Assembly: GCA_029861655.1 (NCBI GenBank)
Contig: JAOTZA010000002.1
Span: 1-33,793, forward strand
From: Acidobacteriota bacterium
GTDB lineage: Bacteria > Acidobacteriota > Thermoanaerobaculia > Multivoradales > JAHEKO01
Direction: 5' to 3'
DNA length: 33,793 nucleotides
Below the pieces are notes generated by a model. It made no database searches and had not been told where the DNA came from. It saw only the letters and a program-made list of their open reading frames with translations. Made by a program: the position numbers and the translations under genes. Below, piece by piece: positions 1,585-18,184 of this stretch; the first letter of the stretch is position 1, and every line of letters starts with the position of its first letter.

Positions 1585-1586
1585 GC

Positions 1587-3293: not shown

Positions 3294-3468
3294 GGTGTGT
3301 TCGAAGAATGGGATGCAGTTCTCTTGCCGGGCCGCAACCGACAACCGAGATACTAAGGTCTCAGGACACTACGCGTCTTTGACCTGGGTGGATCGGCCAC
3401 ATTTCGGTTGGGGCGGCGGCGACGCTCAGATTGCCGCTTGTGGGCGAGAAACGGGTAGTCTCGGCGGC

Positions 3469-5115
3469 ATGACTCGAACGACACACCACCTGAGCCTCGA
3501 TTCTCTCCGGTGGGTAGGGCTTCTGAGCCTCTCGTGCATCCTGATGATCGCTTGCGGCAGGACCGCCCCCGAGGGCGACACCGTGAGTGAACGCACCGCC
3601 GCCGCCACCGAAGTGGCGTGGTTCGAAGGCACTCCGGACGAGGCGTTTGCCTACGCCAAAGCCAAGGGTAAGCCGCTTTTTCTTTACTGGGGTGCCGAGT
3701 GGTGTCCGCCGTGCCACTACTTGAAGGACAAGATCTTCCATCGGCCGGAATTTGTGGGGCGCTCACGAGAATTCGTGGCGGTCTATCTCGACGGTGATGA
3801 CGCGAGCGCCCAAATTCTGGGCGAGCAGCTGGATGTTCAGGGCTACCCGACGGTGATGGTCTATAGCGCCGAGGGTGAGGAGCTGCTGCGCATGCCGAGC
3901 GATGTGCCGGTTTCGCGCTATGCCGCCATCATGGATCGGGCTCTGCGTCTCGATCGGCCGGTGAAGGAGATCCTGGACGCGGTGCTTGCGGTCGGCCCAG
4001 CGCGGGCCGACGAGGCCGATCTGGATGTGTTGGCCTACTACTCCTGGGGTCAGGACAGTCAGATCGATCTGGCCGAAGAGGAGCGTCTGGAGACTTTTCG
4101 CCGTCTGTGGGAGGAGACACCGGGCGGACAGGTGGGCGTACGGGCTCGGTTTCTGGGTCTCTATGTCGGTGAGGCGGCAAGCCGCGCTCGCGATGCGGGC
4201 GAGGGGGATGAACCGTTGCTCGGGGAGGCGGAGCGCGTGCGACTCACTGAGGCGATGCTGGCTCTCCTCGCCGACCCTGCACTGTGCCGGGCGAATGTCT
4301 TCGATGTCACCTACGGAGCCGAAGGCGCAATCGGACTGCTGCAGCCCGAGCGCGGTACCGGGAGAACAGAGCTGATCGAAGCGTGGCGTACCGCGGCAGT
4401 GCGCTTCGAGAGCGACCAGGAGCTCTCCACCGACGATCGTCTGACCGCACTGGCCGCGAGTATCGATCTCGCTCGGCTCGAGACCGAAACCGAAGCCGAC
4501 ATTGAGGAGGCGCCGCTGCCGCCGTCGCTGGTGGAGCGAGCGCGAAAGCATGTGGAATGGGCCGTCGGATCGGTGAGCGGCGGCAGCGAACTGCAGACGG
4601 TGCTCAACACTGCGGCTTTTCTGCTCGACGAGGTCGGGCTTGCCCAGGAGGCTCAGGATCTTCTGGTGGACAAGCTCGACGAAGCGGAGGCACCGTACTA
4701 CTTCATGTCCTGGCTGGCGCGCCTCAAGAAAGACGGTGGCGAGACCGAGGAGGCGCTGACCCTCTATCGACAGGCTTGGGAGTCGGCCGGTGGGCGCTAC
4801 ACTCGCTTTCGCTGGGGTTCGACCTATCTGCGGCGGTTGATGGACTTGGCGCCCGAGCGCGCCGAGGTGATCGAGACCGACTCGCTCATTATCCTCGACG
4901 AGCTGCTGACTCACGATGATGCCTTTGCCCTCGGCAACGGCTTGCGTCTCGGTCAATTAGAGGAGGCTTATCGTGAGTGGAACGAGGACTCCACCCACGA
5001 TGGAACCGTCGGCCGCATCCGCGACCGCGTGCGCTCGGCCTGTGAGCGATACCCGACGGAGGGCGAGGACTCGCAGCGGGATCGCTGCCTGGGCTTTCTG
5101 GAGGAGGAAGCCTGA
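3469..5115 (+). CDS. Thioredoxin-fold lipoprotein with a long alpha-helical C-terminal domain
   Basis: I chose the ATG at 3469. It gives MTRTTHHLSLDSLRWVGLLSLSCILMIACG, a signal peptide with a lipobox Cys. This is followed by KGKPLFLYWGAEWCPPCHYL (a WCPPC thioredoxin active site) and GYPTVMVY. The upstream 159 codons of the track ORF overlap the antisense VWA gene and look non-coding. Confidence 0.75.
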   Translation: MTRTTHHLSLDSLRWVGLLSLSCILMIACGRTAPEGDTVSERTAAATEVAWFEGTPDEAFAYAKAKGKPLFLYWGAEWCPPCHYLKDKIFHRPEFVGRSREFVAVYLDGDDASAQILGEQLDVQGYPTVMVYSAEGEELLRMPSDVPVSRYAAIMDRALRLDRPVKEILDAVLAVGPARADEADLDVLAYYSWGQDSQIDLAEEERLETFRRLWEETPGGQVGVRARFLGLYVGEAASRARDAGEGDEPLLGEAERVRLTEAMLALLADPALCRANVFDVTYGAEGAIGLLQPERGTGRTELIEAWRTAAVRFESDQELSTDDRLTALAASIDLARLETETEADIEEAPLPPSLVERARKHVEWAVGSVSGGSELQTVLNTAAFLLDEVGLAQEAQDLLVDKLDEAEAPYYFMSWLARLKKDGGETEEALTLYRQAWESAGGRYTRFRWGSTYLRRLMDLAPERAEVIETDSLIILDELLTHDDAFALGNGLRLGQLEEAYREWNEDSTHDGTVGRIRDRVRSACERYPTEGEDSQRDRCLGFLEEEA

Positions 5116-5130
5116 CGTCGTAGGACGCGA

Positions 5131-6656
5131 TCAGCTTTCGACCAGGAGCTTCTTGTCGATCTTGCCGATAGCCGTCTTGGGTAGCTCTTCGAAAATCTCG
5201 ACAGTTTGTGGCAGCTTGTACTTGGCCAGTCGTTCTGCCAGGAAGCTCCTGAACGAGTCCTGAGAGAACTCGATGCCCGCGGCGATGACCAGACAGGCCT
5301 TGCCGACCTCGCCCCACTTTTCGTCGGGCACGCCAACCAGGGCAGCCTCGGCCACGCCCTTGTACGCGAGCATCACCGATTCGACCTCCGCCGGGTACAC
5401 ATTCTCGCCACCCGAGATGAACATGTCTTTGGAGCGGCCCTTGATGGTGTAGAAGCCCTCGTCGTCTTTGACTGCGAGGTCGCCGGTCCAAAGCCAGCCG
5501 TCCCGGATGGCCGCGGCCGTGGCCTCGGGTCGCTTCCAGTAGCCGCTCATGACGTGGGGGCCGCGAATCAGGAGTTCCCCGGCCTCCCCTCGGTTGACCT
5601 CGCCTCCCGCCCCATCGACGATCTTCATGTCGATGTGGAAGATCGGCATTCCGACCGAGGTCGTCTTGTCGCGCACGCGGTCTTTTGGGAGCCAGAAGTT
5701 GTTGCCGGTGGCCTCGGTCAAACCGTAGCCCATCTTGAAATCGACACCGCGACTCCAGAACCTCTGCATGATCGGCAGCGGGCAAGGCGCACCGCCCGAA
5801 ATCACCAGTTCGAGCTTGGAGAAGTCGGCTTGCTCCCAGCGCGGATCGGCCTGAATCATTTGGTACATCGTGGGTACGCCCACGTAGTGGGTGACGCCGC
5901 CCGTCTCGATCAGATCGAAGGTCTCGTCGAGACTGAACTCGCGGCAGAGGATGGTCGTGCCGCCGACGTGGACCAGCGGCACCATAAAGATGTTGGGACC
6001 GCCGACATGGAAGAACGGCAACTGGAGCGCCGCCACGTGACCGCCATGGATACCCCACGAGACAATCGTGTTGACGCTGTTCCAGGTGATGTTGCCGTGG
6101 GTCAGGACAGCGCCCTTGGGTAGACCGGTGGTGCCACCCGTGTAGTAGATGCCCCAAGGATGATCGAGCGAGAGATCGGGAAGGTCCTCGATCCGTTCGG
6201 GCTGCCCGTCACGCTCCGAGAACGAGTGGTCGCCGGGGCGGGTTCGCCGAACGCGATGACTTCACGGATGCTGTCAAGCGAGGGGCGCAGCTCTTCGACC
6301 TGCGAGCACCAGTCCGGGCTGTAGAACAGCACGCGCGGCTCGGCATCGGTTACGATCTCGCGCAGCTCGTGCACCGTCAGGCGCCAATTGAGATTTTGGA
6401 GAATGGCTCCGATCTTGCCAGCGGCCCAAAAGAGATCCACGAACTCCGGGCAGTTGGAGGAATACACGGAGACCAGATCACCCTTCTCGACTCCGAGCGA
6501 TCGCAGGTAGTTGGCGGTTTGGTTGACGCGCGCGTTCCAGGCGGAATAGGTGATCTGTGCCCCTCCGAGTCCCTCTATCAGCCCGACGCGGTCGGGGGTC
6601 AACCCCGCGCGCTTGGCAAGCCAGTCGGTGACGTAAGCGGATTCGTGTGGATTCAT
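5131..6656 (-). pseudogene. AMP-dependent synthetase/ligase (acyl-CoA synthetase family), reading frame broken once near 6231-6264
   Basis: The N-terminal part (6656-6102 frame) reads MNPHESAYVTDWLAKRAGLTPDRVGLI...ITYSAWNARVNQTANYL. The AMP-binding core reads in another frame: WGIYYTGGTTGLPKGAVLTHGN, then GYGLTEATG, WLWTGDL, ISGGENVYPAEVE, KTAIGKIDKK to the stop at 5131. The start ATG overlaps the upstream stop (ATGA at 6653-6656). Confidence 0.85.
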
Positions 6657-7696
6657 TTCTTTCCCCACTGCACGATGCCGGCACCCCAGACATAGCCGAT
6701 GCCGGCTCCGAGGATCACCATGAGATCGCCGTCCTCCAGCGCGCCGGTACGCTCACCCTCGATCATCGAGAGGATCGCGTCCTGCTCCCCGATGTGACCG
6801 ATGTGGCCGAGATAGACAGACTGGTCCTTTGAGAGACCGAGAAGCTCGAGAATCTGTGCGTGCGCCGAGGGCTTGACCAGGAGCATGTTCAGGTACCCGA
6901 GGTCGTCTCGGTCGTAGGGAGATCCGTCTACCTTATTTCCCGACTTGGCAAGAGCCTGGTCGACGCAGCGCATCCAGTTGTCGATCGAAACGTCCCCGAG
7001 CCGGCTCTTCATCGCCTCCGGCTCGACCAGGTCGAATTTGAATCGACCTGCCGCCACCGCCTCGTCGCTGGGGTGCTCGAGGGTGCCGCTCGCCGGCACG
7101 ACAACGTGGCGACTCATCGAGCCATCGGAGATCAGGTGGGTGCCGAGAACCTGGTTCTCCGGCCAATCGCGCCGCACAATGAGCGCTCCTGCGCCCGCAC
7201 CGATGTTGAACAGGAACGACGTGCGCGGGTTCGAGAAATCGATGAAGTCGGCGACCGTGTAGCCGCCCGCGATCATGACGGTCTCGACCGACGGATCCTC
7301 GCGCATCAGGGCGCGCGCCAGCTTGAGGGCCGCGATCGTGGTGGCACAACGCATGTGGACGTCCATGCCCCAGGCGTTGATCGCGCCGATCTCTGAAGCC
7401 AGGTCGATACCCGCTGTCCACAGGGCGTACTCCTTCCACTCCTCGGTGGTGCAGAGCAGGACATCGATCTCCTTGGCGTCCATACCCGCTGAGTCCAGGC
7501 ACTGTTTCGCCGCTCGCGCGGCCATCTCGTTGGGATGAACGTTGGGGTCGGTGACGTGTTTGCGCTCGATGCCGAGCTTTTCGCGGATCACCCACTCCTC
7601 CATCCCGCTGGCCTGGGCGATGTCGGCGGCCGTCATCACCGTCTCGGGCAGGTACATCCCGGTGGCGACGATCCCCATGGTGGAGGTTTCGGTCAT
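6653..7696 (-). CDS. KASIII (FabH)-like thiolase-fold protein, non-canonical active-site motifs
   Basis: 347 aa. The opening GIVATGMYLPETVMTAADIA is FabH-like and the nucleophile context is DVHMRCATTIAALKLA. The C-terminal ILGAGIGYVWGAGIVQW matches the FabH C-terminal glycine-rich strand. ATGA overlaps occur at both ends (7693-7696 and 6653-6656). Confidence 0.8.
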   Translation of the reverse strand: MTETSTMGIVATGMYLPETVMTAADIAQASGMEEWVIREKLGIERKHVTDPNVHPNEMAARAAKQCLDSAGMDAKEIDVLLCTTEEWKEYALWTAGIDLASEIGAINAWGMDVHMRCATTIAALKLARALMREDPSVETVMIAGGYTVADFIDFSNPRTSFLFNIGAGAGALIVRRDWPENQVLGTHLISDGSMSRHVVVPASGTLEHPSDEAVAAGRFKFDLVEPEAMKSRLGDVSIDNWMRCVDQALAKSGNKVDGSPYDRDDLGYLNMLLVKPSAHAQILELLGLSKDQSVYLGHIGHIGEQDAILSMIEGERTGALEDGDLMVILGAGIGYVWGAGIVQWGKK

Positions 7697-9201
7697 CCGC
7701 TCGCTTGCCGCTTGCGAAAGGCGAGATGAAGGATTCCACCGACGAGAGTCGCGGCCACGATGCCCAGCGCCGTCGAGATTCCGGGGTTCTTCACCGTGAC
7801 GCCGACGTAGTAGGGGAAGTAGTTCTGGCCCGTGTAGTAGAGAGCGAAGTGCACCACGACGGCCGTGACCGCGGCGGCGACGACCGCGACACGGGGCGTG
7901 TCATGAAGAAACGTGCCGAAGAGTACCGGGACGAACGCCGCCGCAAAAAAGGCGTAGACACCCAGCTGGGCGAAGATGATCACGCTCAGGTTGGGTGACA
8001 CCAGCTGCCAGTAGGCCAGACCGAAAGACACGACGGCAAGACCCGTGATGACGACGCGGTTGAGAATAAACAGGTAGTGGTCCGTCAGGGATCGTCCCGT
8101 GACCCAGTCGTGGATGGTGTGAATCAAGTCGTTGGTGATGATGATCGACATCGACTGAATCAGGCCTTCCAGGGTCGACATACCGGCCGAGATGAGACCG
8201 AGAAACACCAGCACGCCGACAAACCAGGGAAACTGGGTCACGAGATAGACCGAGGTCACGCTGTCCGGGGCAATCGCCTGGCCGTTGTGAACCAAATCGG
8301 GGAACTCGAGCCGGGCGTAGAGACCGACGAGCACGACCAGAAAGAAGAGCATCTGAACGATGATTCCCGCGACGAGATAGCGGTTGACGTCCCGCTTCTT
8401 CTTGAGCAGGAGAGACTTGGTGATGATGTGCGGTTGGCACACGATGGCCATTCCCACGACGATGGTGCAGAAGATCACTTCGAAGCCGTCTCGAAAGAGC
8501 GGGCTCGCGGTGTTGAACAGCGTGGCGAGATGGGGGTCGACGGTTCGCAGTCTCTCGACGAAGCCGCCCACGCCTTGCGCGAAATGCTCGTAGCCCGAGC
8601 CCAGCAGGATCACCGCGACCACCAGCATGATCACGCCCTGGATGGTGTTGGTATAGACCATTGAGTTGGCGCCGCCGAACATCATGTAACCAAACGAGAA
8701 GGCGACCAGCGCGGCGAGCACCAGGGTCTCGTTGAGACCCAGCGAAGCCGCAATGACCTTGGTCAGACCGACGAGGATGAGCACGATGAAGGTGACCAGC
8801 AGTAGAGAGAGGATGGCAAAAAACACCGCAAAGCCCTTGCTCTCATACCGCTGTCCGACCCATTGCGAGAGCGTCAGGGCCTTGACCGACTCACCGTACT
8901 TTCGAAAGCCCTTGGTCAGCACGATCAAGGAGGCGAACATCGAGATCGGCAGCACGACGCACAGGCCAAAGACTGCGCTGAGACCGAAATAGGCGACAAG
9001 CCCCGGGTTGATGATGAAGGTCGCGGCACTGGTCGTCGACGCGGCCAGGGCCAGACCCACCGCGATCGGCGAGAAGGCGATGTTGCCTACCGCGTAATCG
9101 GCGACGCTCTTGTTGCGGCGAGCGCCGCGCACGACCAGGACGATAATGGCGGCCATGTAGGCGAGTACGAGCAGCCAGCTGGCGATGATGTTGATTTCCA
9201 T
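7693..9201 (-). CDS. Sodium:solute symporter (SSS/SLC5) family transporter
   Basis: 502 aa with about 13 hydrophobic helices. The N-terminal ...RRNKSVADYAVGNIAFSPIAVGLALAASTTSAATFIINPGLVAYFGLS is typical of SSS permeases. Confidence 0.8.
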   Translation of the reverse strand: MEINIIASWLLVLAYMAAIIVLVVRGARRNKSVADYAVGNIAFSPIAVGLALAASTTSAATFIINPGLVAYFGLSAVFGLCVVLPISMFASLIVLTKGFRKYGESVKALTLSQWVGQRYESKGFAVFFAILSLLLVTFIVLILVGLTKVIAASLGLNETLVLAALVAFSFGYMMFGGANSMVYTNTIQGVIMLVVAVILLGSGYEHFAQGVGGFVERLRTVDPHLATLFNTASPLFRDGFEVIFCTIVVGMAIVCQPHIITKSLLLKKKRDVNRYLVAGIIVQMLFFLVVLVGLYARLEFPDLVHNGQAIAPDSVTSVYLVTQFPWFVGVLVFLGLISAGMSTLEGLIQSMSIIITNDLIHTIHDWVTGRSLTDHYLFILNRVVITGLAVVSFGLAYWQLVSPNLSVIIFAQLGVYAFFAAAFVPVLFGTFLHDTPRVAVVAAAVTAVVVHFALYYTGQNYFPYYVGVTVKNPGISTALGIVAATLVGGILHLAFRKRQASG

Positions 9202-10062
9202 CTAAAACCCCGTCGATTTGGCTTTCATGAACGCTCGGAGCATCGGGAAGAAGACGTCCTTTCTTTCGAGGTAGAGGACGTGTCCGGCACCCTCGACCAG
9301 TTCGAAACGGATATCGGGGAAGATATCGAGCATTTTCTTTTGCTGCCAGAGCGGCAGAACACGGTCCTGCTCGCCGGAGACCAGGAGCGTCGGGGTCTTC
9401 ACGCGGCGGTACTCGGGGTAACGCTCCTCGAGCCCCCTGAAGAAGGGGTCTTGGGCCTCGGTCAGCCGCACCAGGGAGTGGATGCGGTCCTTGTAGCGCT
9501 CGAAGAAGCGCTGACGCATGTCTTGGAGAGTCTCAGGATCAAGCGCTTCGAGAAACGGTTCACCAAAGATCTTCTCGTAGAGGTAGTGGGTGTAGATCTC
9601 GAAGCCGACCGGGCCCGAGCGGTAGAAGAGTAGTGAGAGAGCCTGGTACATCTCGAACTGGCGCTCGTGGCTCAGCAAGATCCCGGACAGGGTCAGGGTG
9701 TGTAGCCGATCCTGATAGAGCCGGCCGTAGTCCAGGGCGATGAAGCCGCCATAGGAGATTCCCATCACATGAATCTTGTCGATGCCGAGATGATCGATGA
9801 TGCCGGTGAGGTAGTGGCAGAAGTCCGGGATGAAATGGGGTTCGTCGGGGCACGACGACCGACCCTGCCCCAGATAGTCGTAGAGGATGACGTCGTACTC
9901 GTCGGTGAGCTCGGGCAGGCACCAGTACCAGGCCGGCGTGTGCATGGCGAGACCGTTCAGGAGACAGACCGCCTCCTTGTCGCCCTTGCCGTGGTACTCC
10001 CAGTAGATTCGGTGCTCGCCGAAAGGCAGGTGCCCGCTCTTCTCGGGGACGACTTCAGCCAT
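9202..10062 (-). CDS. Alpha/beta hydrolase (no signal peptide)
   Basis: ATG at 10062 preceded by GGGAG. The protein has an HG-type oxyanion region (AVCLLNGLAMH), the nucleophile elbow HVMGISYGG and a C-terminal GAGHVLYLE. The TAG stop (9202-9204) directly abuts the symporter ATG at 9201. The 42 extra N-terminal codons in the ORF track are Arg/Ser-rich and look non-coding. Confidence 0.8.
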   Translation of the reverse strand: MAEVVPEKSGHLPFGEHRIYWEYHGKGDKEAVCLLNGLAMHTPAWYWCLPELTDEYDVILYDYLGQGRSSCPDEPHFIPDFCHYLTGIIDHLGIDKIHVMGISYGGFIALDYGRLYQDRLHTLTLSGILLSHERQFEMYQALSLLFYRSGPVGFEIYTHYLYEKIFGEPFLEALDPETLQDMRQRFFERYKDRIHSLVRLTEAQDPFFRGLEERYPEYRRVKTPTLLVSGEQDRVLPLWQQKKMLDIFPDIRFELVEGAGHVLYLERKDVFFPMLRAFMKAKSTGF

Positions 10063-10236
10063 CGTCTGCTCCCGCCTCGTGGAGGTCGACTGCTGCCCCG
10101 ATGGGTGCTGCGTTGTAGCGGGCGAGCTCCGTCTCGACCGAACCCCGTTTCGGAATGACTGCCGACTTCCTGGAACGACGGTCGACACGGAGGTCGACCG
10201 CTACGGGAGCCGTCTCGCTTCGTTCGATCCTCGGCA

Positions 10237-11448
10237 TCAGGCCACTTGTTTGAGAACCGTGCACACCGAGGCGCAGATCGGGCCACCGATGTTGAAGGTC
10301 GCTGCAACTTCGGCATCCTGGCGCTGCAGCTCGGTTGGCGCCTGGCCCAGCAGCTGTTTGGCGGCCCAGCCGATCATCGCAACGCCGGTGGCGCCGATCG
10401 GATGTCCCTTGGCGATGAGCCCCCCGGATGTGTTGACCGCGCAGTCTCCATGCACCGAAGCCCGACACTCCTTCCAGAACTCAGCGCCTTCGCCGTAGCC
10501 GGCCTTGCCGATGACTTCGACGCCGATCGCGCCCATCACGGTGAAGCAGTCGTGGACCTCGGCGACCGTGACGTCGGCGGGCGTGACGCCCGCCGCCTCG
10601 TAGGCGGTGTTCATGGCCCCGAGGGCCCCGGCCGGGCGCAGCACGTCACGGCCTTCTTTCTGGATCGGGTCGGTCGCCTGGGCGAATCCGGCCAACTCGA
10701 CACACTCCTGTTTCGCGACACCGAGCTTGGCCAGGCCTTCTTCGGTCGCCAGGATGAGTCCGGCATAGCCATCGGTGATCTGCGAACAATCGTAGGTCTT
10801 GAGCGGTAGGCCGTCGACGATGTAGCGATTGATGCCTTCGATCGTCGTCGCCTGCTCGAGGGTGAGATCGACTCGGCTCATCTGGGCGTTGGGGTTATGA
10901 GTGGCGTGCCCGTACTCGGCCACGGCGATACGGGCGAGGTCTTCTTCGCTGACTCCGTGGGTGTCCATATAGAGCTGCATCACCTCGGCGAAGAGATGGG
11001 GAAAGATGTAGGCCTTGCCCTCCCGCTCATCGGGGTGTGAGAAAACGCCCAGCGCCCGGCCGATCCGTTTGCCATCCATCTTGCCTTCGTCGTTGCGCAT
11101 CTTCTCGAAGCCGACGGCGATACCGACATCTCCCAGCCCGAGCAGAAGTTTGTGAGCCACCGAAAGAACGGCTTGGCCGCCCGAGGCGCAGGCGTTCTCG
11201 ACCGATTCCATCGGCTTGCCTTCGAGCCCCGAAACCATGGCCATCAAACCGCTCAGTAGGCCCTGATCGTTGAGGGTGAAGCCGCAGGCAGACGCGATCG
11301 AGCCGACGTCGATCGCTCCCGGCTCGCAATCGATCTCGGTGCAGGTGCCAACGACCGCGTTCGAGACGATCTCGGGAACCGTCATCGTCTTCAGTTTGCC
11401 GAACTTTGATTGGTGATAGGACGCGATAAAGAGCGGCTTGTTGAGCAT
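10237..11448 (-). CDS. Thiolase, SCP-x / archaeal-type (thiolase domain protein)
   Basis: ATG at 11448 preceded by AGGAGA. Motifs are VENACASGGQAV (nucleophilic Cys), SQITDGYAGLIL and NTSGGLIAKGHPIGATGV. The C-terminal NIGGPICASV lacks the CxGGGxG second-Cys motif of degradative and biosynthetic thiolases. Confidence 0.8.
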   Translation of the reverse strand: MLNKPLFIASYHQSKFGKLKTMTVPEIVSNAVVGTCTEIDCEPGAIDVGSIASACGFTLNDQGLLSGLMAMVSGLEGKPMESVENACASGGQAVLSVAHKLLLGLGDVGIAVGFEKMRNDEGKMDGKRIGRALGVFSHPDEREGKAYIFPHLFAEVMQLYMDTHGVSEEDLARIAVAEYGHATHNPNAQMSRVDLTLEQATTIEGINRYIVDGLPLKTYDCSQITDGYAGLILATEEGLAKLGVAKQECVELAGFAQATDPIQKEGRDVLRPAGALGAMNTAYEAAGVTPADVTVAEVHDCFTVMGAIGVEVIGKAGYGEGAEFWKECRASVHGDCAVNTSGGLIAKGHPIGATGVAMIGWAAKQLLGQAPTELQRQDAEVAATFNIGGPICASVCTVLKQVA

Positions 11449-11456
11449 GGGATCTC

Positions 11457-12257
11457 CTATTGGGTCTTGTGCCGCCGCAGGAACTCGAGGCAGACCTCGG
11501 TCAACCACTGAGGGTCTTCCGCGACCAGGGCATGGCCGCTGGTCTCGTGGGTGCGGGTCTCGGCGCCGCGAATGGCGGCAGCCAGAGCGATCGAACGCTC
11601 CGGCGGAATGACTTGATCTTTGGCCGCGATGACGACCAGGGTCGGGCAACGAATAGACTCCAGATGGGGTCGCGCGTCGAGGGTTTCCATGGCGGCCATG
11701 ATGCCTTCCAGGCCCTCGAACCAGACATCCGGAAGGGCCGCAACCTGCTCGCGACGCTGGGCGAGCTCGTCCGTGTACTTTGCTTGGAACTGGCGGGAGT
11801 AGACCTCCTCGACGACGCGGTCGTGGAGCCGGCCTTTGTCGCCACCGGCCAGGGCATCGGCCACCAGCAGTCGCAGATCTTCGACCCCCTGCCAGATCGA
11901 TTTGGTCGCATAGTCCATGACAGTGACCGCGATCAGGGATCGCACCCGCTCCGGGCGCAGGGCGGCGAAGAAGAGACCGACCTCACCGCCGTAGGACGTG
12001 CCGAGGACGTGCACCGAGTCGATCTCGAGATGGTCCAGCAAGGCCGTCAAATCCTCCGCGTTCTCGGCCATTGCGGCCGGCGCCCTGCCCGGGCTCAAGA
12101 GCTGCCCGCGCAGGTCGTTGAGAATCAGGCGGTGGCTTTTTACGAGCCGGGCCGACACCGGACCCCAGGCGGCGTAGGTCATCAACCCGCCGTTGAGGAT
12201 CAGGACGGGCTCGCCGTCGCCCTCGACCTGATGAGCCAGGACCTCGGTGGGCGTCAT
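11457..12257 (-). CDS. Alpha/beta hydrolase (no signal peptide)
   Basis: 266 aa with PVLILNGGLMTY, the nucleophile elbow HVLGTSYGG and a C-terminal TSGHALVAEDP. Its ATG overlaps the upstream stop (ATGA at 12254-12257). Confidence 0.8.
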   Translation of the reverse strand: MTPTEVLAHQVEGDGEPVLILNGGLMTYAAWGPVSARLVKSHRLILNDLRGQLLSPGRAPAAMAENAEDLTALLDHLEIDSVHVLGTSYGGEVGLFFAALRPERVRSLIAVTVMDYATKSIWQGVEDLRLLVADALAGGDKGRLHDRVVEEVYSRQFQAKYTDELAQRREQVAALPDVWFEGLEGIMAAMETLDARPHLESIRCPTLVVIAAKDQVIPPERSIALAAAIRGAETRTHETSGHALVAEDPQWLTEVCLEFLRRHKTQ

Positions 12258-13249
12258 TGCGCGTCCTCGTTTCCGGCCTCGTCTGTCGTCTCGACAGAGT
12301 CGTCGACAACAGGTGGAGGAGGCTCAGTCCGGAGTACTTCACCCAGCCGGTCCGCGAGTTTTTCGGGACATTCGTTGGCCGGATGGTGACCGCAGCCCGT
12401 GATGGTCGTGATCCTTGAGCGCGGCAGCTGTGCGGCCATGCGCTCGGCATAGGCGAGCGTCATCAACTGATCGGAGGCGCCCCACAGGAGATCGACCGGA
12501 ACCGTGACCTCTCCCAAACGACCCTCCAGCAAATGCGCGATGAGATCATCGAGCTCGCTGGTCATTCTCCCGATCGGTCCCTTGGCCGACTGCTCGACGA
12601 TGTCGTCGAGAACAAAGTCGGGCGTCGGCGGGCTGGCGGGATCGCGCAGAGAGGTCATGAGCTTGCGCGCCGCCTCGCGGTCGACCGGGGTCAGGCTGAG
12701 ATCCGGCCGGTCTCCGACCAGCCCTCCGCCGTTGATCAACACGGCACGCGCCACAGCTTGTGGATGGCGATGAGCATGGATGGTCGCCAGCCAGGCGCCC
12801 ATCGAGTGTCCCACCAGAATCATCGGTCCGTCGCCGCCCACACTCGACAGGAGCTCTTCGAGACCGCCGTAGACGAGAGTCATGGGCAGCGGACCCTCGA
12901 CGGGTTCACTATCCCCGTGACCGGCCAGATCGGGAACGAGGACCCGGTAGTCGGGCAGGAGACTCTCGACGATGCCCTGGAAGGCGCCCGCCTGATCCCC
13001 GACACCATGGACCAACACCAGCGCCTGGCCGTTGCCGGCTTCCCAATAGGCGAGTTGGCCGGCCGAGCTGTCGAAGCTCTTCAACTCGAGACCGGCTTTG
13101 GCGAGGGCCGAGCGTGTGGCCTTCTCGTACACCGCCAGCGGGTTCTCTCTGGCATACCAGAGAAGGCTGATCGTGACGATCACCAACAGAGCGAGGGCCG
13201 CGAGAGCCCACTTGAGAACGGATCCTTGTTGCCTCTTGACTCTCTTCAT
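12254..13249 (-). CDS. Alpha/beta hydrolase with N-terminal signal-anchor helix and acidic C-terminal tail
   Basis: 331 aa. MKRVKRQQGSVLKWALAALALLVIVTISLLWY is a basic segment followed by one TM helix. Further motifs are LVLVHGVGD, the nucleophile elbow LVGHSMGAW and CGHHPANE. The tail is VVDDSVETTDEAGNEDAQ. ATGA overlap with the upstream KASIII-like gene at 13246-13249. Confidence 0.8.
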   Translation of the reverse strand: MKRVKRQQGSVLKWALAALALLVIVTISLLWYARENPLAVYEKATRSALAKAGLELKSFDSSAGQLAYWEAGNGQALVLVHGVGDQAGAFQGIVESLLPDYRVLVPDLAGHGDSEPVEGPLPMTLVYGGLEELLSSVGGDGPMILVGHSMGAWLATIHAHRHPQAVARAVLINGGGLVGDRPDLSLTPVDREAARKLMTSLRDPASPPTPDFVLDDIVEQSAKGPIGRMTSELDDLIAHLLEGRLGEVTVPVDLLWGASDQLMTLAYAERMAAQLPRSRITTITGCGHHPANECPEKLADRLGEVLRTEPPPPVVDDSVETTDEAGNEDAQ

Positions 13250-14262
13250 GACTTCCCTTCCGGTAGGCGCTGCACTCGGAAGGCACAGCCCGCCTGGTTG
13301 TAGCCGACACCCGAACCGATCAAGACGACCAGGTTGCCGGGTTTCACGCGTCCCCTGCCGACCGCGTCATCGAGAGCCATGGCGAGGCAGGCGGAGCCGG
13401 TGTAGCCGCACTCCTCCATGATCGTGTGAGTCCTCTCGAGCGGCAGACCCAGGTTCTCCATGACCAACTCGATCGAAGGCTTGCGGACCTGGGTGAACAG
13501 AACGAGGTCGATCTCGTCGAGGCTAAATCCCCCCTCGGAAGCCAACCTCCGGACCAGACGAGGCCAGCCCTCGTGGTTGATCTCGGGCGGGTAGCGCTCG
13601 ACCAGTCGCACCTGGGTACGCCCCGCTTCGACGCTCTCGACCGAGGCCGGCTCGAACGTGCCTCCCGAATAGATGCCCCAGTTGCCGTGATACGAGCCGT
13701 CGGCCTGGGTCGCCGCGACCACGAACCCGGGGTTGGAGGCGGCTTCGAGGACGGCCGCGCCGGCGCCATCGCCGTAGAAGAAGACCGTCGGATCATCGGC
13801 AGCCGCCAGTTTGCGCATCATGTAGACGCCGACCACCAGAACCGTTCGCAGGCTGGGATTGGTCGACAACCAGCCGGCCGCTGTTGCCAGGCCGGTGGGG
13901 AAGGAGGCGCAAGCGCAGCCGATGTCGAAGGTCCCGGCGTTTCCGGCGCCGAGCTTATGCTGCAGAACGACCGAGGTGGCCGGGGTGATGTAGTCCGGCG
14001 AATCGGTCCCGACGATGATCAGATCGATCTCTTCCGGGCTGCGGCCGGCTCGCGCGAGAGCTCGCTCGGCGGCACGTAGCGCCAGGTCCGAAGTCGCCCA
14101 GTCGTCGGGCGCGTACCAACGTCTCTTGATCCCGGTCGAGGCTTCCATACTGTCGATAAAGTCTGGGAAGTCGTCCGAGAAACGACGGCGCAAAGCGTCG
14201 TTCGAGACCTCGATCTCCGGCAGATAACTGCCGGTGGCGATAATCTGACCGAAACGATTCAA
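13246..14262 (-). CDS. KASIII (FabH)-like thiolase-fold protein; retains Cys, apparently lacks the His/Asn pair
   Basis: 338 aa, TTG start at 14262 with GAGGG 4 nt upstream. It has IIATGSYLPEIEVSND, the nucleophile context FDIGCACASF, FFYGDGAGAAVL and a C-terminal IGSGVGYNQAGCAFRV. Confidence 0.8.
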   Translation of the reverse strand: MNRFGQIIATGSYLPEIEVSNDALRRRFSDDFPDFIDSMEASTGIKRRWYAPDDWATSDLALRAAERALARAGRSPEEIDLIIVGTDSPDYITPATSVVLQHKLGAGNAGTFDIGCACASFPTGLATAAGWLSTNPSLRTVLVVGVYMMRKLAAADDPTVFFYGDGAGAAVLEAASNPGFVVAATQADGSYHGNWGIYSGGTFEPASVESVEAGRTQVRLVERYPPEINHEGWPRLVRRLASEGGFSLDEIDLVLFTQVRKPSIELVMENLGLPLERTHTIMEECGYTGSACLAMALDDAVGRGRVKPGNLVVLIGSGVGYNQAGCAFRVQRLPEGKS

Positions 14263-14274
14263 GACGCCCTCACC

Positions 14275-15027
14275 TCAGGTGCCGATCACCAGGCCGCCGT
14301 CGACCGACAGCACGGTGCCGGTCACGAAGGAAGCGGCGTCCGAGGCCAGCCAGACATAGGCGTTGGCGATGTCTTCGGGCTCGCCCATTCGACCGATCGG
14401 CGTATGGGACACCATGCCGTCGAGAATCTTCTGCGGCATGGCCTTGAGGATCTCGGTGCCGATAAAGCCTGGCGCGACGGCGTTGACGCGGATCTTGTAG
14501 CGGCCCAGCTCGCGCGACCAGGTGCGGCTCAGGTTGATCACCCCCGCCTTTGTGGGGGCGTAGTTACTCTGCCCGAAGTTGCCGTAATGGCCGACCACCG
14601 AGGAGGCGTTGAGGATCACCCCGCCGCCGCCGCGGATCATGTGCGGAACGACTGCGCGGCCGCAGTTGAAGACTCCCTTGAGGTTGACGGCGATGACCGA
14701 GTCGAACTGCTCATCGGTCATCACCGAGGCGACTTCATCATCCTTCCACTTCACCAGTTGGGCGTCGCGAACGATGCCCGCGTTGTTGATCAAAACGTCG
14801 ATCCGTCCGAAGCGCTCCGCAACTTCCGACGCAGCGGCATTGACCGCCGCAGAGTCCGAGACATCAACGGATTGGAACAACCCGTTGGTCGGCGCCTTGT
14901 CTTCACCGATATCCCATACGGCCACTTTGCAGTCTTCACCGGCGAAAGCGCGGACAGTGTCTCGCCCGATCCCCGCCGCGCCGCCGGTAACGACAACGAC
15001 CTTGCCCACCAATCCGGTTTCGATCAT
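14275..15027 (-). CDS. Classical short-chain dehydrogenase/reductase, FabG-like 3-oxoacyl reductase
   Basis: 250 aa with TGGAAGIG (cofactor-binding), NNAG, S...YxxxK (NYAPTKAG), PGFIGTE and a C-terminal GTVLSVDGG. AAGGAG sits 7 nt before the ATG. Confidence 0.9.
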   Translation of the reverse strand: MIETGLVGKVVVVTGGAAGIGRDTVRAFAGEDCKVAVWDIGEDKAPTNGLFQSVDVSDSAAVNAAASEVAERFGRIDVLINNAGIVRDAQLVKWKDDEVASVMTDEQFDSVIAVNLKGVFNCGRAVVPHMIRGGGGVILNASSVVGHYGNFGQSNYAPTKAGVINLSRTWSRELGRYKIRVNAVAPGFIGTEILKAMPQKILDGMVSHTPIGRMGEPEDIANAYVWLASDAASFVTGTVLSVDGGLVIGT

Positions 15028-15050
15028 GGCGACTCCTTTGTTGCTCGAAG

Positions 15051-15078
15051 CGGCCCCGGCGGTTTGCCGCCGGGGCCG
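15051..15078 (-). terminator. Perfect 12-bp GC-rich hairpin (CGGCCCCGGCGG-TTTG-CCGCCGGGGCCG) between the TonB receptor and SDR genes; no U-tract
   Basis: The inverted repeat was read directly. It lies 24 nt after the receptor stop and 23 nt before the SDR ATG. It could be an attenuating or partial terminator, or an mRNA-stabilising stem. Confidence 0.45.
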
Positions 15079-15102
15079 TCTTCTGAGTGGTTGCCTATGC
15101 GA

Positions 15103-17406
15103 TTACCAGAACTTGTAACCAAAGGTCGCGGTCACCGTCCGCGGCTGTCCGAGCGAACCCGTCAGGATGGCCAACGACGGGATGTTGTAGCCGTTGGTCA
15201 GATAGACCTCATCGGTCAAGTTCTTGCCGTTGATGGTGATCGACCAGTCACCATCACCCGACAGCCATCCGATCGAGGCATTCAGAAGATCGAAAGCCTC
15301 CTGCACGATCGGAGTCGTCCCGTTGCCCTCGTTGGTGAGCTCCGAATCGTCCCGGTAGGAGAAGCCGATCTTGCCGGAGACGAGGCCCCCCCAGGCCGCC
15401 TGGTTGACATTGAGGAAGAGCGCACCGGTGAATTCGGGGGCGTTGGTGATGACCTGGACGTCCGCCAGGGTGTTGTTGTCGGTGTCGACAAAGTTCTCGC
15501 TGGTGTCGAGAAAGCTCACGTTGCCCGACACCCCCAGCCAGCTCACCGTCGGCGACTTCCAGTCGAACTCGACCTCCAGGCCGTTGAGCGTCGCGTCGCC
15601 GGCGTTGACGAAGTCGCCGAGGAAGGACTCGGCCGTGCCATCGCCGTCGCTGTCGAACTCGGTGAAGGTCGAGACCTGAACGTCGGTGTAATCGCCGGTA
15701 AAGACGGCCGCGTTCAAGACCAGGCTGCGGTTGGCGAGGACCGACTTGACGCCCACCTCGGCCACCGTGAGTTCCTCGTCCTTGAAGGGCTCGCCGGTTT
15801 TTGGGACGAACAGCGTCTGGGCGCGGACGTTGAAGCCGCCGCTCTTGAAGCCGCGGCTCAGCGAGACGTAGCCCATGACGTCATCGTTGAACTGGTAGTC
15901 GAGCCCGAGCTTGGGCGAGACCGAAGAAAAGGTCTCGGTTTGGTCGTAGTCCGCCGTCACAAGCACCGGAACAGCAAAAGTATCGTCCAGGTAACCGGCA
16001 TTGAACGCCCGGCCGTTCTTGTCCTCCTCGGTGAAGCGAGCGCCGAAGTTGAAGGTTAGCTGATCGTTGACCTGGTAGCTGCCGTCCCCAAAGATCGCCA
16101 TCGACTCGGTCTTGGTGGTGCCGTCGGTCGTGCCGAACTGCGGAAAGGGCGGGAAGGGGAAAAGCGTCCCGTCGAGGAAGATGTTCCGCACCAGCCCACC
16201 GGCGAGGCCGTCGAAGTAGTAGAACCCGAAGACTCCGTCGAGCCTGCCGCCGCCGGTGTAGATGAATTGGAATTCCTGAGAATCCTGCTCATCGAAGTAA
16301 TCCGCGAACACGTCGACGATTCGCGCCGGCGAGGTGTCGAAGTCGATGTTGTTCTGGGTGTCCGTCTCGCGATGAGCGGTGATCGATTTGAACTGCCACT
16401 CGTTGTTGATGTCCCAGATGATCGTCAGGCCGTAGCCCTCCGAGTCGGTGCTGTTGGTGGGTGGCAGACCGCTCTCGGTGTCGAAGTTGTCGAGGACCGG
16501 GCATGAAATCCCGTAGAACACCGTGCAGACGCCATTTGCCGCCAGCCGGGTCAAGCCCTTGGGTTCGGAGTCGTCCTCGGTGCGGTCGTACCTCAGCTTG
16601 ACGGTCACGTCATCGGACGCCAAAAAGTCCAGACCCAGTCGAAAGGCCGTAGTGTCCTTGTTCGACACCTCTCTACCGGTGAACAGGTTGGTCCCGTAGC
16701 CATCGTGCTGCAGTGAAGCAAAGGCGAATTTGCCGCGTAGTTTGCCCTCGACCAGAGGACCGCCGAAGCTGAGCTTGATGTCCTGGTTCGAGAACGATCC
16801 CGGAGTGATGGAGATCCGTCCTTCCTTCGTGTCGGTCAGCTCCCGGCTCACGTACTTGATCGCGCCGCCGATGGTGTTCTTGCCATAGAGGGTTCCCTGC
16901 GGACCGCGCAGGACTTCGATCCGTTGGACATCGAAGACGTCCAACAGCGCGCCCTGGGGGCGGGCGATATAGACATCGTCTAGATAGAGACCCACACCCG
17001 GGTCGACACCCCAGAGCGGATCGGCCTGGCCGATGCCGCGCATAAAGGCGGTCAGGGTCGTCGACTGGTTGCGGCCCGGATAGATCGACAGATTCGGCAC
17101 GCTGGCCTGGATCTCCGAGATGTCCATCGCCGCGAGATCCTCGAGGGCGTCACCCTGGATCATGGTGACCGCGATCGGCACCTCCTGAATGTTCTCCTCG
17201 CGTTTGCGAGCGGTGACCGTGATCACGTCGCTCTCCTGGTGCATCTCTTCCTCGGCCTCGGCTTCGGCAGTGTCTTCCGCTGTGTCGTCGTCCTGCGCCA
17301 ATACGGGCGCTGTGGGGAAGACCACCACGAGGGCGAGCACCAGAAAGACCGCGCGGATCAGTAGTGCAGTGTTCGGTGAATTGTGATGTGAGTTGAATCG
17401 ACTCAT
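15103..17406 (-). CDS. TonB-dependent outer-membrane receptor
   Basis: ATG at 17406 preceded by GAGGAGGAAG. It has a signal peptide ending ...VFPTAPVLAQD, an acidic linker, the TonB-box-like DVITVTA, plug motifs (IEVLRGPQGTLYGKNTIGGAI) and a terminal ...TATFGYKFW (aromatic C-terminus). The longer 1040-aa track ORF is an artefactual extension through tetR. Confidence 0.9.
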   Translation of the reverse strand: MSRFNSHHNSPNTALLIRAVFLVLALVVVFPTAPVLAQDDDTAEDTAEAEAEEEMHQESDVITVTARKREENIQEVPIAVTMIQGDALEDLAAMDISEIQASVPNLSIYPGRNQSTTLTAFMRGIGQADPLWGVDPGVGLYLDDVYIARPQGALLDVFDVQRIEVLRGPQGTLYGKNTIGGAIKYVSRELTDTKEGRISITPGSFSNQDIKLSFGGPLVEGKLRGKFAFASLQHDGYGTNLFTGREVSNKDTTAFRLGLDFLASDDVTVKLRYDRTEDDSEPKGLTRLAANGVCTVFYGISCPVLDNFDTESGLPPTNSTDSEGYGLTIIWDINNEWQFKSITAHRETDTQNNIDFDTSPARIVDVFADYFDEQDSQEFQFIYTGGGRLDGVFGFYYFDGLAGGLVRNIFLDGTLFPFPPFPQFGTTDGTTKTESMAIFGDGSYQVNDQLTFNFGARFTEEDKNGRAFNAGYLDDTFAVPVLVTADYDQTETFSSVSPKLGLDYQFNDDVMGYVSLSRGFKSGGFNVRAQTLFVPKTGEPFKDEELTVAEVGVKSVLANRSLVLNAAVFTGDYTDVQVSTFTEFDSDGDGTAESFLGDFVNAGDATLNGLEVEFDWKSPTVSWLGVSGNVSFLDTSENFVDTDNNTLADVQVITNAPEFTGALFLNVNQAAWGGLVSGKIGFSYRDDSELTNEGNGTTPIVQEAFDLLNASIGWLSGDGDWSITINGKNLTDEVYLTNGYNIPSLAILTGSLGQPRTVTATFGYKFW

Positions 17407-17429
17407 GCTTCCTCCTCTTGTGTCGGTCC

Positions 17430-18089
17430 CTACGCCGGGCCGGCTGGGTCCTGGGTGTGTTCGCCGCCGGGCCTTGGTAGCAGGCCGTATCGCAGCAAGC
17501 GGATGAACTCTTGGGTTGCCTCCTTGGGCTTCATTCCGAAGTGCATCGGGACCCCGAAGCACTTTTCGACCGTGTAGAAATAGAAGAACCAGCGGGTCGC
17601 GACCATCACGGCGACCATCGGATCGGCTTCGCCGAAGTCGCCGGCGGCCTGGCGGTCGCGAAAGCGCTCGCCGTAGGTGTCCCGGAATCGGCCCGCCATG
17701 CCCTCGTAGAAAGCGTGGATGTGCCGACCCTCGAATTCGATGACGTCGACGTAAACCAGGAGGATGTAGGGCTTGAAGGCGTCTACGACTTCCTCGATGG
17801 CGCCGGCCACTTCTTCGAGGTCCTCGGGGAAGTCCGCCTTTGCGAAGAGCTGGTTGAGACGTAGGCGCGGGTCCGTGACGAGCTCCCAGTACTGGTCGAT
17901 CAGACGCTCGAAGATCTCCTCTTTGTTGGAGAAGTGATGGTAGAGATTGCCGACCGAGAGGCCCGACTCGGCGGCAATCTGCCGCATCGAGGTGGCGCGG
18001 AAACCTTGCGTCGAGAACAGCCCCAAGGCCGCCTCGAGAGCTTGGGCCACGGACAACTCGGATCTTGGGTCCGGCGACGTAATCGGCAT
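17430..18089 (-). CDS. TetR/AcrR-family transcriptional regulator
   Basis: ATG at 18089 with GGGAG 9 nt upstream. The N-terminal HTH reads ALGLFSTQGFRATSMRQIAAESGLSVGNLYHHFSNKEEIF. Confidence 0.85.
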   Translation of the reverse strand: MPITSPDPRSELSVAQALEAALGLFSTQGFRATSMRQIAAESGLSVGNLYHHFSNKEEIFERLIDQYWELVTDPRLRLNQLFAKADFPEDLEEVAGAIEEVVDAFKPYILLVYVDVIEFEGRHIHAFYEGMAGRFRDTYGERFRDRQAAGDFGEADPMVAVMVATRWFFYFYTVEKCFGVPMHFGMKPKEATQEFIRLLRYGLLPRPGGEHTQDPAGPA

Positions 18090-18103
18090 CAAGTTGACTC
18101 CCA

Positions 18104-18117
18104 ACCGAACGTTCGGT
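18104..18117. promoter_or_regulatory. Perfect 14-bp palindrome ACCGAACGTTCGGT, candidate TetR operator
   Basis: Read directly. It sits 15 nt upstream of the tetR ATG, immediately downstream of the candidate -10, and covers the predicted transcription start. Confidence 0.45.
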
Positions 18118-18121
18118 CGGT

Positions 18122-18150
18122 ACTGTAGCGAGGATCTGTCTTGCTGTCAA
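18122..18150 (-). promoter_or_regulatory. Candidate sigma70-type promoter TTGACA-17nt-TACAGT for the tetR-receptor-enzyme unit
   Basis: On the minus strand, TTGACA is at 18150-18145 and TACAGT at 18127-18122, with an exact 17-nt spacer. It lies in the 95-nt gap between the RND stop (18185) and tetR. Confidence 0.4.
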
Positions 18151-18184
18151 CAGATTCAGTTGGAGCAACAAGTCCCGACGGGTT

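Follow-up and report, generated by a model that had tools for sequence, protein, structure and literature searches.

The OleABCD system, and with it LstA-D and NltA-D, places side by side a KASIII-like thiolase-fold protein, an alpha/beta hydrolase, a member of the AMP-ligase family and a short-chain dehydrogenase/reductase (SDR), where the SDR, OleD, is of the extended, 3-beta-HSD type. PhlACB and the archaeal thiolase-HMG-CoA synthase-DUF35 complex bring a KASIII-like protein together with an SCP2-type thiolase. D-specific beta-oxidation, represented by MFE-2, SCPx thiolase and the bacterial enzymes of steroid side chains, joins an SCPx thiolase to an SDR of (R) specificity and a MaoC hydratase. 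TonB-linked utilisation loci and degradation operons of the TetR/FadR type place a repressor gene first, with a palindrome at its promoter, and gather a receptor, a periplasm-facing hydrolase, a transporter and cytoplasmic enzymes in one unit. Features of each recur in a single set of 11 consecutive genes on the Acidobacteriota contig JAOTZA010000002.1, located on the minus strand at 5131-18104 of a 33,793-nt stretch (hereafter the window, to which coordinates refer unless another locus is named) and delimited from an open reading frame (ORF) listing and direct reading. We propose that this is probably a catabolic operon under autoregulated TetR repression, through which an ester-type organic acid of exogenous origin is taken up and degraded. 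Its two KASIII-like proteins are called KAS_A and KAS_B, its alpha/beta hydrolases ABH1, ABH2 and ABH3, its thiolase THL and its ligase LIG, while LIG' denotes the ligase of the core cluster in relatives, sited between ABH1 and ABH2.

Each of these systems differs from the operon in specific respects. Compared with the Ole systems, the operon adds a thiolase, a TonB receptor and a symporter, does not keep the OleA residues, and encodes a hydrolase predicted to face the periplasm; OleA structures align only with residues 43-134 of KAS_A (about 1e-15). The PhlACB-type trio is approached in a Chloroflexota variant of the cluster, which has a DUF35 protein, but the window has no DUF35 gene, a tblastn search with that protein found none in 80 acidobacterial loci, and a PhlACB or thiolase-HMG-CoA synthase complex was rejected for this reason. 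The Glu and His residues of HMG-CoA synthase are not conserved either, and similarity to PhlC and HMG-CoA synthase is weak. The likeness to D-specific beta-oxidation lies in a FabG-type SDR and an HDCF-bearing SCP2 thiolase of type 1, joined by a MaoC (R)-hydratase in a Bacillus variant; in contrast to that system, the acidobacterial operon has no hydratase or acyl-CoA dehydrogenase and carries extra FabH-derived enzymes and esterases. The layout is that of the TonB-linked and TetR/FadR-type loci, yet the enzyme set matched no described locus that we found. Two-step salicylate activation (SdgA/SdgB) was considered as a precedent for a ligase with a KASIII-like partner and was not used, as reviews say only 'probably salicylyl-CoA synthetase'.

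No characterised counterpart emerged from NCBIfam, from PDB sequence and fold searches or from the literature, where searches on PRK06840, on FabH-like catabolic operons and on TonB receptors with 3-hydroxybutyrate oligomers returned nothing relevant. An earlier note on this DNA had suggested an undescribed pathway, and that suggestion holds, in that no characterised operon, curated equivalog or paper explaining the cluster was found. The kind of system, a repressor-controlled and receptor-linked catabolic operon, is known; this one is marked by the pair of uncharacterised FabH-derived clades at its centre, by its wide phylogenetic reach and by its exceptional conservation in Acidobacteriota.

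A probable repressor-controlled operon

The 11 genes very probably form a genuine repressor-controlled operon, widespread in Acidobacteriota. In transcription order, the junctions between them measure 23, 75, 12, -4, -4, 8, 174, 0, -4 and -4 nt, where the negative values are ATGA overlaps and the zero is a stop codon abutting the next start. The 11 ORFs and all ten junctions are as the earlier note had described them, and its family calls agree throughout with the Pfam profiles. The 219-aa tetR (17430-18089; Pfam TetR_N, E = 7e-18; also 219 aa in the source record) is followed by the gene for a 767-aa TonB-dependent receptor (15103-17406) with a signal peptide, plug and barrel (Pfam Plug and TonB_dep_Rec_b-barrel), and then by the genes for the FabG-like classical SDR (250 aa; 14275-15027; Pfam adh_short_C2), KAS_A, ABH1, ABH2, THL, ABH3, a 502-aa SSS-family sodium:solute symporter (7693-9201; Pfam SSF), KAS_B and LIG. 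A 60-aa ORF that the source record calls in the 174-nt gap between THL and ABH3 is not conserved, the gap being 77 nt in locus L001 and 377 nt in L082, and was not counted as a gene.

The start of tetR is most likely the ATG at 18089, which stands behind a conserved GGGAG ribosome-binding site, rather than the TTG at 18104. Directly upstream, on the minus strand at 18122-18150, lies a sigma-70-like promoter, TTGACA-17 nt-TACAGT, the sole such site on either strand within 4800-18600. Shuffled sequence yields a mean of 1.9 sigma-70-like sites, so that one site alone is not above chance; the promoter is made credible by its position and by a layout that is conserved in relatives. Immediately downstream of the -10 hexamer is a perfect 14-bp palindrome, ACCGAACGTTCGGT (18104-18117), a candidate TetR operator. 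Promoter and palindrome occupy the same place upstream of tetR in nine further loci (L082, L001, L002, L043, L046, L066, L072, L090 and L091), where the palindrome is identical or has at most two mismatches and comes after a -35 element matching TTGACA (one mismatch in L090; none evident in L091) and a -10-like hexamer. Elsewhere in the 1.57 Mb of fetched loci, only four matches to the palindrome with at most two mismatches occur. The palindrome is present where TetR is at least 44% identical (where measured) and absent from the Terriglobia loci, whose TetR is about 32% identical, the pattern that would be expected of a co-evolving repressor/operator pair. With an N-terminal helix-turn-helix in the protein and, at the promoter of its gene, a palindrome that is conserved in step with it, TetR and this site make a candidate repressor/operator system. 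A PDB search with TetR gave no relative of its ligand domain and no hint of a ligand. Taken together, the tight junctions, the lone promoter site at tetR and a candidate operator conserved in 10 loci indicate a single regulated unit, as the earlier note had proposed for this closely packed, TetR-headed arrangement.

Further upstream of tetR on the same strand (18185-26150) are three genes of RND-pump type (MFP, RND, RND; 406, 1197 and 1052 aa; MdtABC-like) with overlapping stops and starts. They are missing from the corresponding position in L082, L090 and L091 and are therefore unlinked to the cluster there, so that tetR is rightly taken as the head of the operon. The ACR_tran match of the first RND protein is broken into three stretches, so that an insertion is possible there.

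Within the operon, the 75-nt gap between receptor and SDR contains a 12-bp G+C hairpin without a U tract (15051-15078, minus strand), with a minimum free energy of -39.7 kcal/mol (z = -5.8). Hairpins stand at the equivalent place in L082 (9182-9216) and L090 (about 9107-9150), unrelated in sequence, such that structure is conserved and sequence is not; in L090 the hairpin is followed by a T-rich tail. The element may be an attenuator, a partial terminator or an mRNA-end element. An Rfam scan of the window detected no riboswitch or other known RNA.

Two FabH derivatives without the decarboxylation pair

KAS_A (13246-14262) and KAS_B (6653-7696) have the thiolase fold, with the Pfam domains ACP_syn_III and ACP_syn_III_C, and FabH is the best sequence and structure match of both. 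Cys118 of KAS_A and Cys117 of KAS_B align with the acyl-accepting Cys112 of FabH. In FabH, His244 and Asn274 drive decarboxylation of the malonyl thioester. At these positions KAS_A, whose motifs are FTQVRKPS and GYTGSAC, has Thr257 and Tyr287. KAS_B has Leu in place of His244 and His301 in place of Asn274, with Asp306 further on (GHIGEQD). Among 120 homologues examined for each protein, the replacements hardly vary. GYTGSAC is found in 119 and FTQVRKP in 81 of the 120 KAS_A homologues, and GH....D in 119 of the 120 KAS_B homologues. With the His/Asn pair missing, neither protein is likely, from its residues, to be a normal decarboxylating condensing enzyme, which speaks against the earlier description of both as condensing-enzyme homologues. 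The neighbourhood also differs from that of FabH, as the KAS genes are flanked by those for importers, esterases and a coenzyme A (CoA) ligase and not by genes of fatty-acid synthesis; no ORF of acyl carrier protein (ACP) size and no FabD, FabZ or FabI gene was found in the cluster of the window or in the relatives inspected. The Foldseek searches that the earlier note had proposed could be run on both KAS models, and their top matches were all FabH (TM 0.75-0.86, about 0.8 for KAS_A), which does not discriminate function.

The two proteins are sister families in a profile-profile comparison (probability 99.8%, 26% identity), sharing a KPS motif, and Tyr287 and Cys292 of KAS_A align with His301 and Asp306 of KAS_B. 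KAS_B belongs to the PRK06840 family and is the sole operon protein above a curated NCBIfam cut-off (NF005308; 412.6 bits against 315), the model being generic ('3-oxoacyl-ACP synthase'). Its putative catalytic residues recall the KSIII-like acyltransferases CerJ and ChlB3, which use a Cys-His-Asp triad, C113/H296/D301 in ChlB3 (PMC9573744). Cys117, His301 and Asp306 of KAS_B reproduce the His-x4-Asp spacing of ChlB3 and nearly its distance from Cys to His (184 against 183), unlike KAS_A, where Tyr287 and Cys292 take the places of the His and the Asp. In sequence, KAS_B is nevertheless nearer FabH (E = 1e-22 to 1e-31) than CerJ (6e-14), DpsC (4e-12) or ChlB3 (1e-7), and none of the latter three is among its top 50 structural hits. 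CerJ and ChlB3 also sit in antibiotic gene clusters, while KAS_B sits in a probable catabolic or uptake operon. On these alignments, the likeness is one of the active site only and not of family membership.

We propose that KAS_B and the adjacent ligase are partners in acyl transfer or thiolation. For KAS_A, the simplest inference is that it acts on the 3-oxoacyl product of the SDR, by thiolysis or acyl transfer via Cys118, since the SDR and KAS_A genes are adjacent in three phyla and the Chondrinema cluster described below has no separate thiolase.

Hydrolases, thiolase, reductase, ligases and transporters

All three hydrolases carry a GxSxG serine. ABH1 (12254-13249; GHSMG) has an N-terminal transmembrane helix, kept in 15 of the 16 orthologues examined, and the positive charges that precede this anchor predict a catalytic domain facing the periplasm. 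The L001 orthologue (about 6483-7577) has a lipoprotein-type signal with an LAGC lipobox and an Ala/Pro/Glu-rich linker in place of a plain anchor. The best PDB match of ABH1, 6i8w, which we take to be PlaF, a membrane-bound phospholipase A1, covers the whole protein from the anchor onward, though at no better than E = 5e-17. ABH2 (11457-12257; GTSYG) finds its best PDB matches in the carboxylesterases Est1 and MGS-M2, and ABH3 (9202-10062; GISYG) also matches esterases; both look like cytoplasmic carboxylesterases by sequence. In a comparison with PHA depolymerases and 3HB-oligomer hydrolases (PHA, polyhydroxyalkanoate), PDB entry 8ynv matches only the N-terminal part of ABH2 and ABH3. In relatives, as in the window, ABH3 is followed by a gene for an inner-membrane transporter. 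PHA synthesis of the PhaCAB type was ruled out, given that the nucleophile is Ser and not Cys in all three hydrolases.

THL (10237-11448) is a type-1 SCP2 thiolase by its NACASG cysteine, its HDCF and GHP motifs and its Thiolase_C_1 domain (E = 1e-27), with 7yvy, 3zbg and 6hsj among its PDB relatives. The SDR scores 243.6 bits against the NCBIfam FabG model, below the cut-off of 296, and its gene immediately precedes that of KAS_A in Acidobacteriota, Chloroflexota and Bacteroidota. LIG and LIG' reach 448-462 bits with the long-chain fatty-acid-CoA ligase model PRK06187 (cut-off 476), and the MenE-like PRK06839 is also among their best-scoring models; an OleC model does not figure in the 25 best shown per ligase. 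A PDB search with the receptor gave no hint of its ligand. TonB receptors of varying type accompany the cluster in the acidobacterial variants and in Chondrinema. The symporter is 56% identical to that of the Chondrinema cluster and is substituted elsewhere by a major facilitator superfamily (MFS) transporter or an ABC importer.

LIG (5131-6656) is an acyl-CoA ligase of FadD/MenE type, recognised by Pfam AMP-binding once its sequence is repaired; the window carries it with a frameshift and not as the intact gene that had been reported. Its region of 1526 nt is not a multiple of three, and two frames split the N-terminal 188 codons from the C-terminal part. The same contig in ENA (ERZ28013244:k141_2732775) encodes an intact ligase of 508 aa, from which the window departs by the deletion of 1 nt near 6236 (6230-6240; CGCCGGAGGCGGG -> CGCCGGGGCGGG). 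Over the 21 kb compared, the two records differ by this deleted base and by three substitutions (12689, 13024 and 13136), all in ABH1 and within 450 bp, with one amino-acid change (residue 76, Ala in the window and Thr in ENA). The deletion may stem from strain variation or from an error of assembly or polishing, or it may mark an incipient pseudogene.

Conservation within Acidobacteriota

A scan seeded with THL, using one genome per species, returned 288 relatives, of which the best 80 loci were analysed. Nearly all of these are Acidobacteriota, from Thermoanaerobaculia, Terriglobia, Holophagae, Vicinamibacterales and Bryobacterales. All window proteins were searched against the 80 loci by tblastn, and 54 were informative in having enough upstream DNA. 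In 30 of the 54, SDR, KAS_A, LIG' and THL share a strand, and in 22 of the 54 ABH1 joins them; TetR and the TonB receptor usually come first, and ABH2 and ABH3 are often present. In Terriglobia the receptor is a 1161-aa protein of the CarboxypepD_reg type. In L001, a metagenome-assembled genome, a single 802-aa ORF (1476-3884) runs from tetR into the N-terminal portion of the receptor, and a full-length receptor was not recovered; this may reflect a frameshift or a degraded receptor gene.

Median identity to the window is 72% for THL, 69% for KAS_A, 65% for the SDR, 60% for ABH3, 45% for ABH2, 41% for ABH1 and 34% for TetR. THL is 69-84% identical in the 80 loci, and KAS_A and THL together are 65-84% identical across classes. 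In L020, L030, L046, L076 and L011 the gene order is shuffled and the set is kept, which argues for a functional link between the genes. The exact 11-gene order recurs in L082 (GCA_024224155.1; KAS_A 88% identical) and L090 (JGI 3300041083; KAS_A 78%), so that the arrangement is conserved outside its source genome.

The window, L082 and L090 share a further feature, in that LIG' is missing and SSS-KAS_B-LIG follows ABH3, while L091 retains LIG' and has an MFS transporter gene behind ABH3. Absence of LIG' coincides precisely with presence of the KAS_B-LIG pair (three loci against about 30), which suggests a functional replacement in which the pair supplies the activation step. KAS_B itself occurs in none of the 80 THL-seeded loci. 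An SSS gene stands beside KAS_A without KAS_B in L001, L002 and Chondrinema. In L013, L016, L067, L075 and L079, SDR and THL form an adjacent pair without KAS_A, ABH1 or a ligase, and this pair may be an older unit that later received the other genes.

Related clusters in other phyla

Related modules are found in Chloroflexota, Bacteroidota, Actinomycetota, Bacillota and haloarchaea, every one of them beside an importer; their genes are given here in the order in which they occur. A plasmid of the Chloroflexota strain ZRK35 (CP069395) encodes an SDR (59% identical), KAS_A (58%, with GYTGSAC), a CoA-transferase of the acetyl-CoA hydrolase/transferase family, an SCP2-type thiolase, a DUF35 protein, an alpha/beta hydrolase and a LIV-type ABC importer. 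A plasmid of Chondrinema litorale WSW3-B12 (Bacteroidota; NZ_CP111049) encodes FabG, KAS_A (41%, with GYTGSAC), the SSS symporter, a ligase, an alpha/beta hydrolase, an unknown protein and a TonB receptor. Metagenome-assembled genomes of Acidimicrobiia (Actinomycetota) have TetR, KAS_B and LIG (each 72% identical), an alpha/beta hydrolase, a LIV-type ABC importer, a second ligase and a crotonase. Bacillus sp. N5-665 has TetR, a ligase, a MaoC hydratase, a KAS_B-like protein with Ser for Cys, an NHL/SGL propeller and a LIV-type ABC importer; the sequence (L087, NZ_CP093325.1), entered in PLSDB as 'plasmid p1', is 5.5 Mb long and evidently a chromosome, and it is almost without annotation there. 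Halobaculum megaplasmids combine a LIV-type ABC importer, a KAS_B-like protein whose gene overlaps the permease gene, a PQQ-like propeller and an acyl-CoA dehydrogenase.

The recurrent unit is thus a non-condensing FabH derivative with a CoA-activating enzyme, a hydrolase and an importer, to which an SDR and/or a thiolase or hydratase is often added. The placing of KASIII-like genes amid transporter genes had been regarded as an oddity of this contig; Halobaculum and Chondrinema exemplify what is instead a recurrent association across phyla. The KAS_B-LIG pair of the Acidimicrobiia loci (9387-13640 in L083/L084/L085) is 72% identical to that of the window (5131-7696), which far exceeds the expectation for vertical descent across phyla and makes horizontal transfer of a KAS_B-LIG module likely.

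Proposed function and its alternatives

We infer the order of steps, the direction of breakdown and the substrate class as follows. The TonB-dependent receptor would carry the compound across the outer membrane, where ABH1, as an esterase anchored in the inner membrane and facing the periplasm, would free a carboxylic acid that the SSS symporter would take into the cytoplasm. The acid would then be converted to its CoA thioester by the acyl-CoA ligase, and the FabG-like SDR would interconvert 3-hydroxyacyl-CoA and 3-oxoacyl-CoA, such that THL and the FabH-derived KAS_A could cleave the 3-oxoacyl-CoA or hand on acyl units, while ABH2 and ABH3 may hydrolyse leftover ester or thioester bonds in the cytoplasm. 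TetR would sit on ACCGAACGTTCGGT just past the -10 hexamer and let go upon binding the substrate or its CoA ester.

The earlier note had left open whether the cluster is biosynthetic or catabolic, and the evidence favours catabolism with uptake. Importers are invariably present, as TonB with SSS in the window, L082, L090, L001 and Chondrinema, as TonB with MFS in L091, as the 1161-aa TonB receptor in Terriglobia, and as a LIV-type ABC system in Chloroflexota, Acidimicrobiia, Bacillus and Halobaculum. CoA activation is interchangeable, by a ligase in general but by a CoA-transferase in Chloroflexota, and the layout follows the order of the cell envelope. These features, along with the conserved anchor of ABH1 and its likeness to a membrane-bound lipid esterase, point to uptake and breakdown.

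The substrate class can be put forward only as a weak guess. (R)-3-hydroxy acids in ester linkage, for example in PHA oligomers or in lipids of 3-hydroxy fatty acids, are suggested by analogy, since a FabG-type SDR and an SCP2-type thiolase, with MaoC in Bacillus, recall D-specific beta-oxidation. A broader idea is likewise doubtful: KAS_A and KAS_B may represent two sister clades of FabH that have turned degradative, by retro-Claisen thiolysis or acyl transfer. With a ligase, an esterase and an importer they would then make up a catabolic route that has gone unrecognised, present in six phyla or more and in almost all soil Acidobacteriota, and its substrate would be an ester common in the environment, for instance (R)-3-hydroxyalkanoate oligomers.

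Several observations weigh against the proposed function. The ligase is frameshifted in the window, and no operon enzyme passes a substrate-specific curated cut-off in NCBIfam; PHA-depolymerase models in particular score far below theirs (NF050089, 50-59 bits against 300; TIGR02240, 49 against 250). We found no precedent for a thiolytic FabH-fold enzyme with a Cys/Tyr/Cys site. The operon contains no enoyl-CoA hydratase or acyl-CoA dehydrogenase, so that ordinary beta-oxidation cannot run from the operon alone. Finally, THL occurs without the other genes in 17 of the 54 informative loci, at about 72% identity, and may be a general enzyme recruited into the operon.

Four other explanations were weighed, and the context data favour none of them. 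It is unlikely that the operon serves lipid turnover or the salvage of exogenous fatty acids. Here, a PlaF-like ABH1 would free fatty acids from (lyso)phospholipids for activation by the FadD-like ligase, KAS_A, confined to the transacylase half of its reaction, would pass acyl groups from CoA to ACP or a lipid acceptor, and FabG and the thiolase would adjust chain length. Such a role would suit the match of ABH1 to a membrane-anchored phospholipase-type hydrolase, ligase scores that fall just below the long-chain fatty-acid-CoA ligase cut-off, a KAS_A that is nearest genuine FabH and retains the acyl-accepting Cys, and a Terriglobia TetR that weakly resembles Bacillus FadR. However, no ACP, acyltransferase (PlsX/Y/C) or FabD is present in any variant, and a TonB receptor with SSS, MFS or LIV-type ABC transport is not the usual route of long-chain fatty acids. 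KAS_B-type genes stand beside ABC importers in haloarchaea, organisms without ACP-dependent fatty-acid synthesis, and the acetyl-CoA hydrolase/transferase-family enzyme of Chloroflexota is typical for short acids.

There is a slim chance that the substrate is instead a polyketide-like beta-di- or tri-keto acid or lactone, such as triacetate, phloroglucinol-derived 3-hydroxy-5-oxohexanoate, acylphloroglucinols or pyrones. Its degradation would proceed by ring or lactone opening, CoA activation, oxidation by the SDR and two successive thiolyses, each by a different thiolase-fold enzyme. The classical CoA-dependent scheme for 3-hydroxy-5-oxohexanoate likewise comprises a CoA-transferase, a dehydrogenase and two thiolyses, and the clusters have two or three thiolase-fold enzymes each. 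The Bacillus variant carries a lactonase-like NHL/SGL propeller in place of the alpha/beta hydrolase, and the Chloroflexota variant has a trio of KASIII-like protein, SCP2-type thiolase and DUF35 as in PhlACB. The hydrolases score 65-117 bits on enol-lactonase and C-C hydrolase models, but this is far under the curated cut-offs; the reductase and cyclohydrolase of the known phloroglucinol pathway are both missing; and THL matches PhlC only at 1e-12 and in its C-terminal part. A periplasm-facing, anchored esterase with a TonB receptor suggests a larger, esterified substrate.

Similarly improbable is a chance fusion under one promoter, in which an acidobacterial core and a horizontally acquired SSS-KAS_B-LIG segment would handle unrelated substrates. 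Consistent with such a fusion, KAS_B and LIG have their 72% identical counterparts in an adjacent Acidimicrobiia pair with its own TetR, hydrolase and ABC importer, and KAS_B is found in 0 of the 80 THL-seeded loci. The fusion has been retained, however, in three diverged genomes, whose KAS_A is 78-88% identical, and it coincides with the loss of LIG', as if the new pair supplied the activation step. That an SSS gene accompanies KAS_A without KAS_B in three other loci also speaks against unrelated substrates.

Ole- or beta-lactone-type biosynthesis, or some other head-to-head condensation, with KAS_A, ABH1, the ligase and the SDR as OleA, OleB, OleC and OleD, a lipid or signal as product and a TonB receptor for its re-uptake or unrelated to it, is very unlikely and was dropped on active-site residues, SDR class, ligase type and topology: the SDR-KAS_A-ABH1-LIG' core does consist of exactly the four Ole protein superfamilies, and its enzymes are strongly conserved across classes (65-84%), but KAS_A lacks the His and Asn of OleA and matches OleA at 1e-15 against 7e-47 for FabH, the SDR is classical and FabG-like rather than extended, the ligases score best with CoA ligases of FadD/MenE type, ABH1 reaches 43.7 bits on a haloalkane-dehalogenase model with a cut-off of 241 and has a catalytic domain predicted to be periplasmic, and the conserved neighbours are importers and not exporters, with a CoA-transferase in one variant.

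Flanking genes

Beyond the operon and the RND-type genes, the flanks of the window hold ORFs at 1587-3344 (minus strand), 2992-5115 (plus), 27353-28135 (plus), 29197-30645 (plus) and 30720-31949 (minus), two of which are long and lack a Pfam match. The other three encode an RtcB RNA ligase, an exporter of the ThrE family and a thioredoxin-like protein of DUF255 type. Only 15 nt separate the stop codon of the thioredoxin-like gene from that of the ligase gene, which runs towards it.

Implications for Acidobacteriota and the FabH family

Acidobacteriota are among the most abundant bacteria of soil and peat, and their substrate range has been little linked to genes. The cluster is among their most conserved accessory operons, with thousands of homologues in metagenomes. 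Recognising that genes of the KAS_A and KAS_B type are not fatty-acid synthesis genes would correct a systematic mis-annotation, and identification of the substrate would give a function to a large block of genes now annotated as '3-oxoacyl-ACP synthase III'. A new type of reaction for the FabH fold could emerge from their study, and the conserved operator and repressor would provide a ready biosensor for the ligand.

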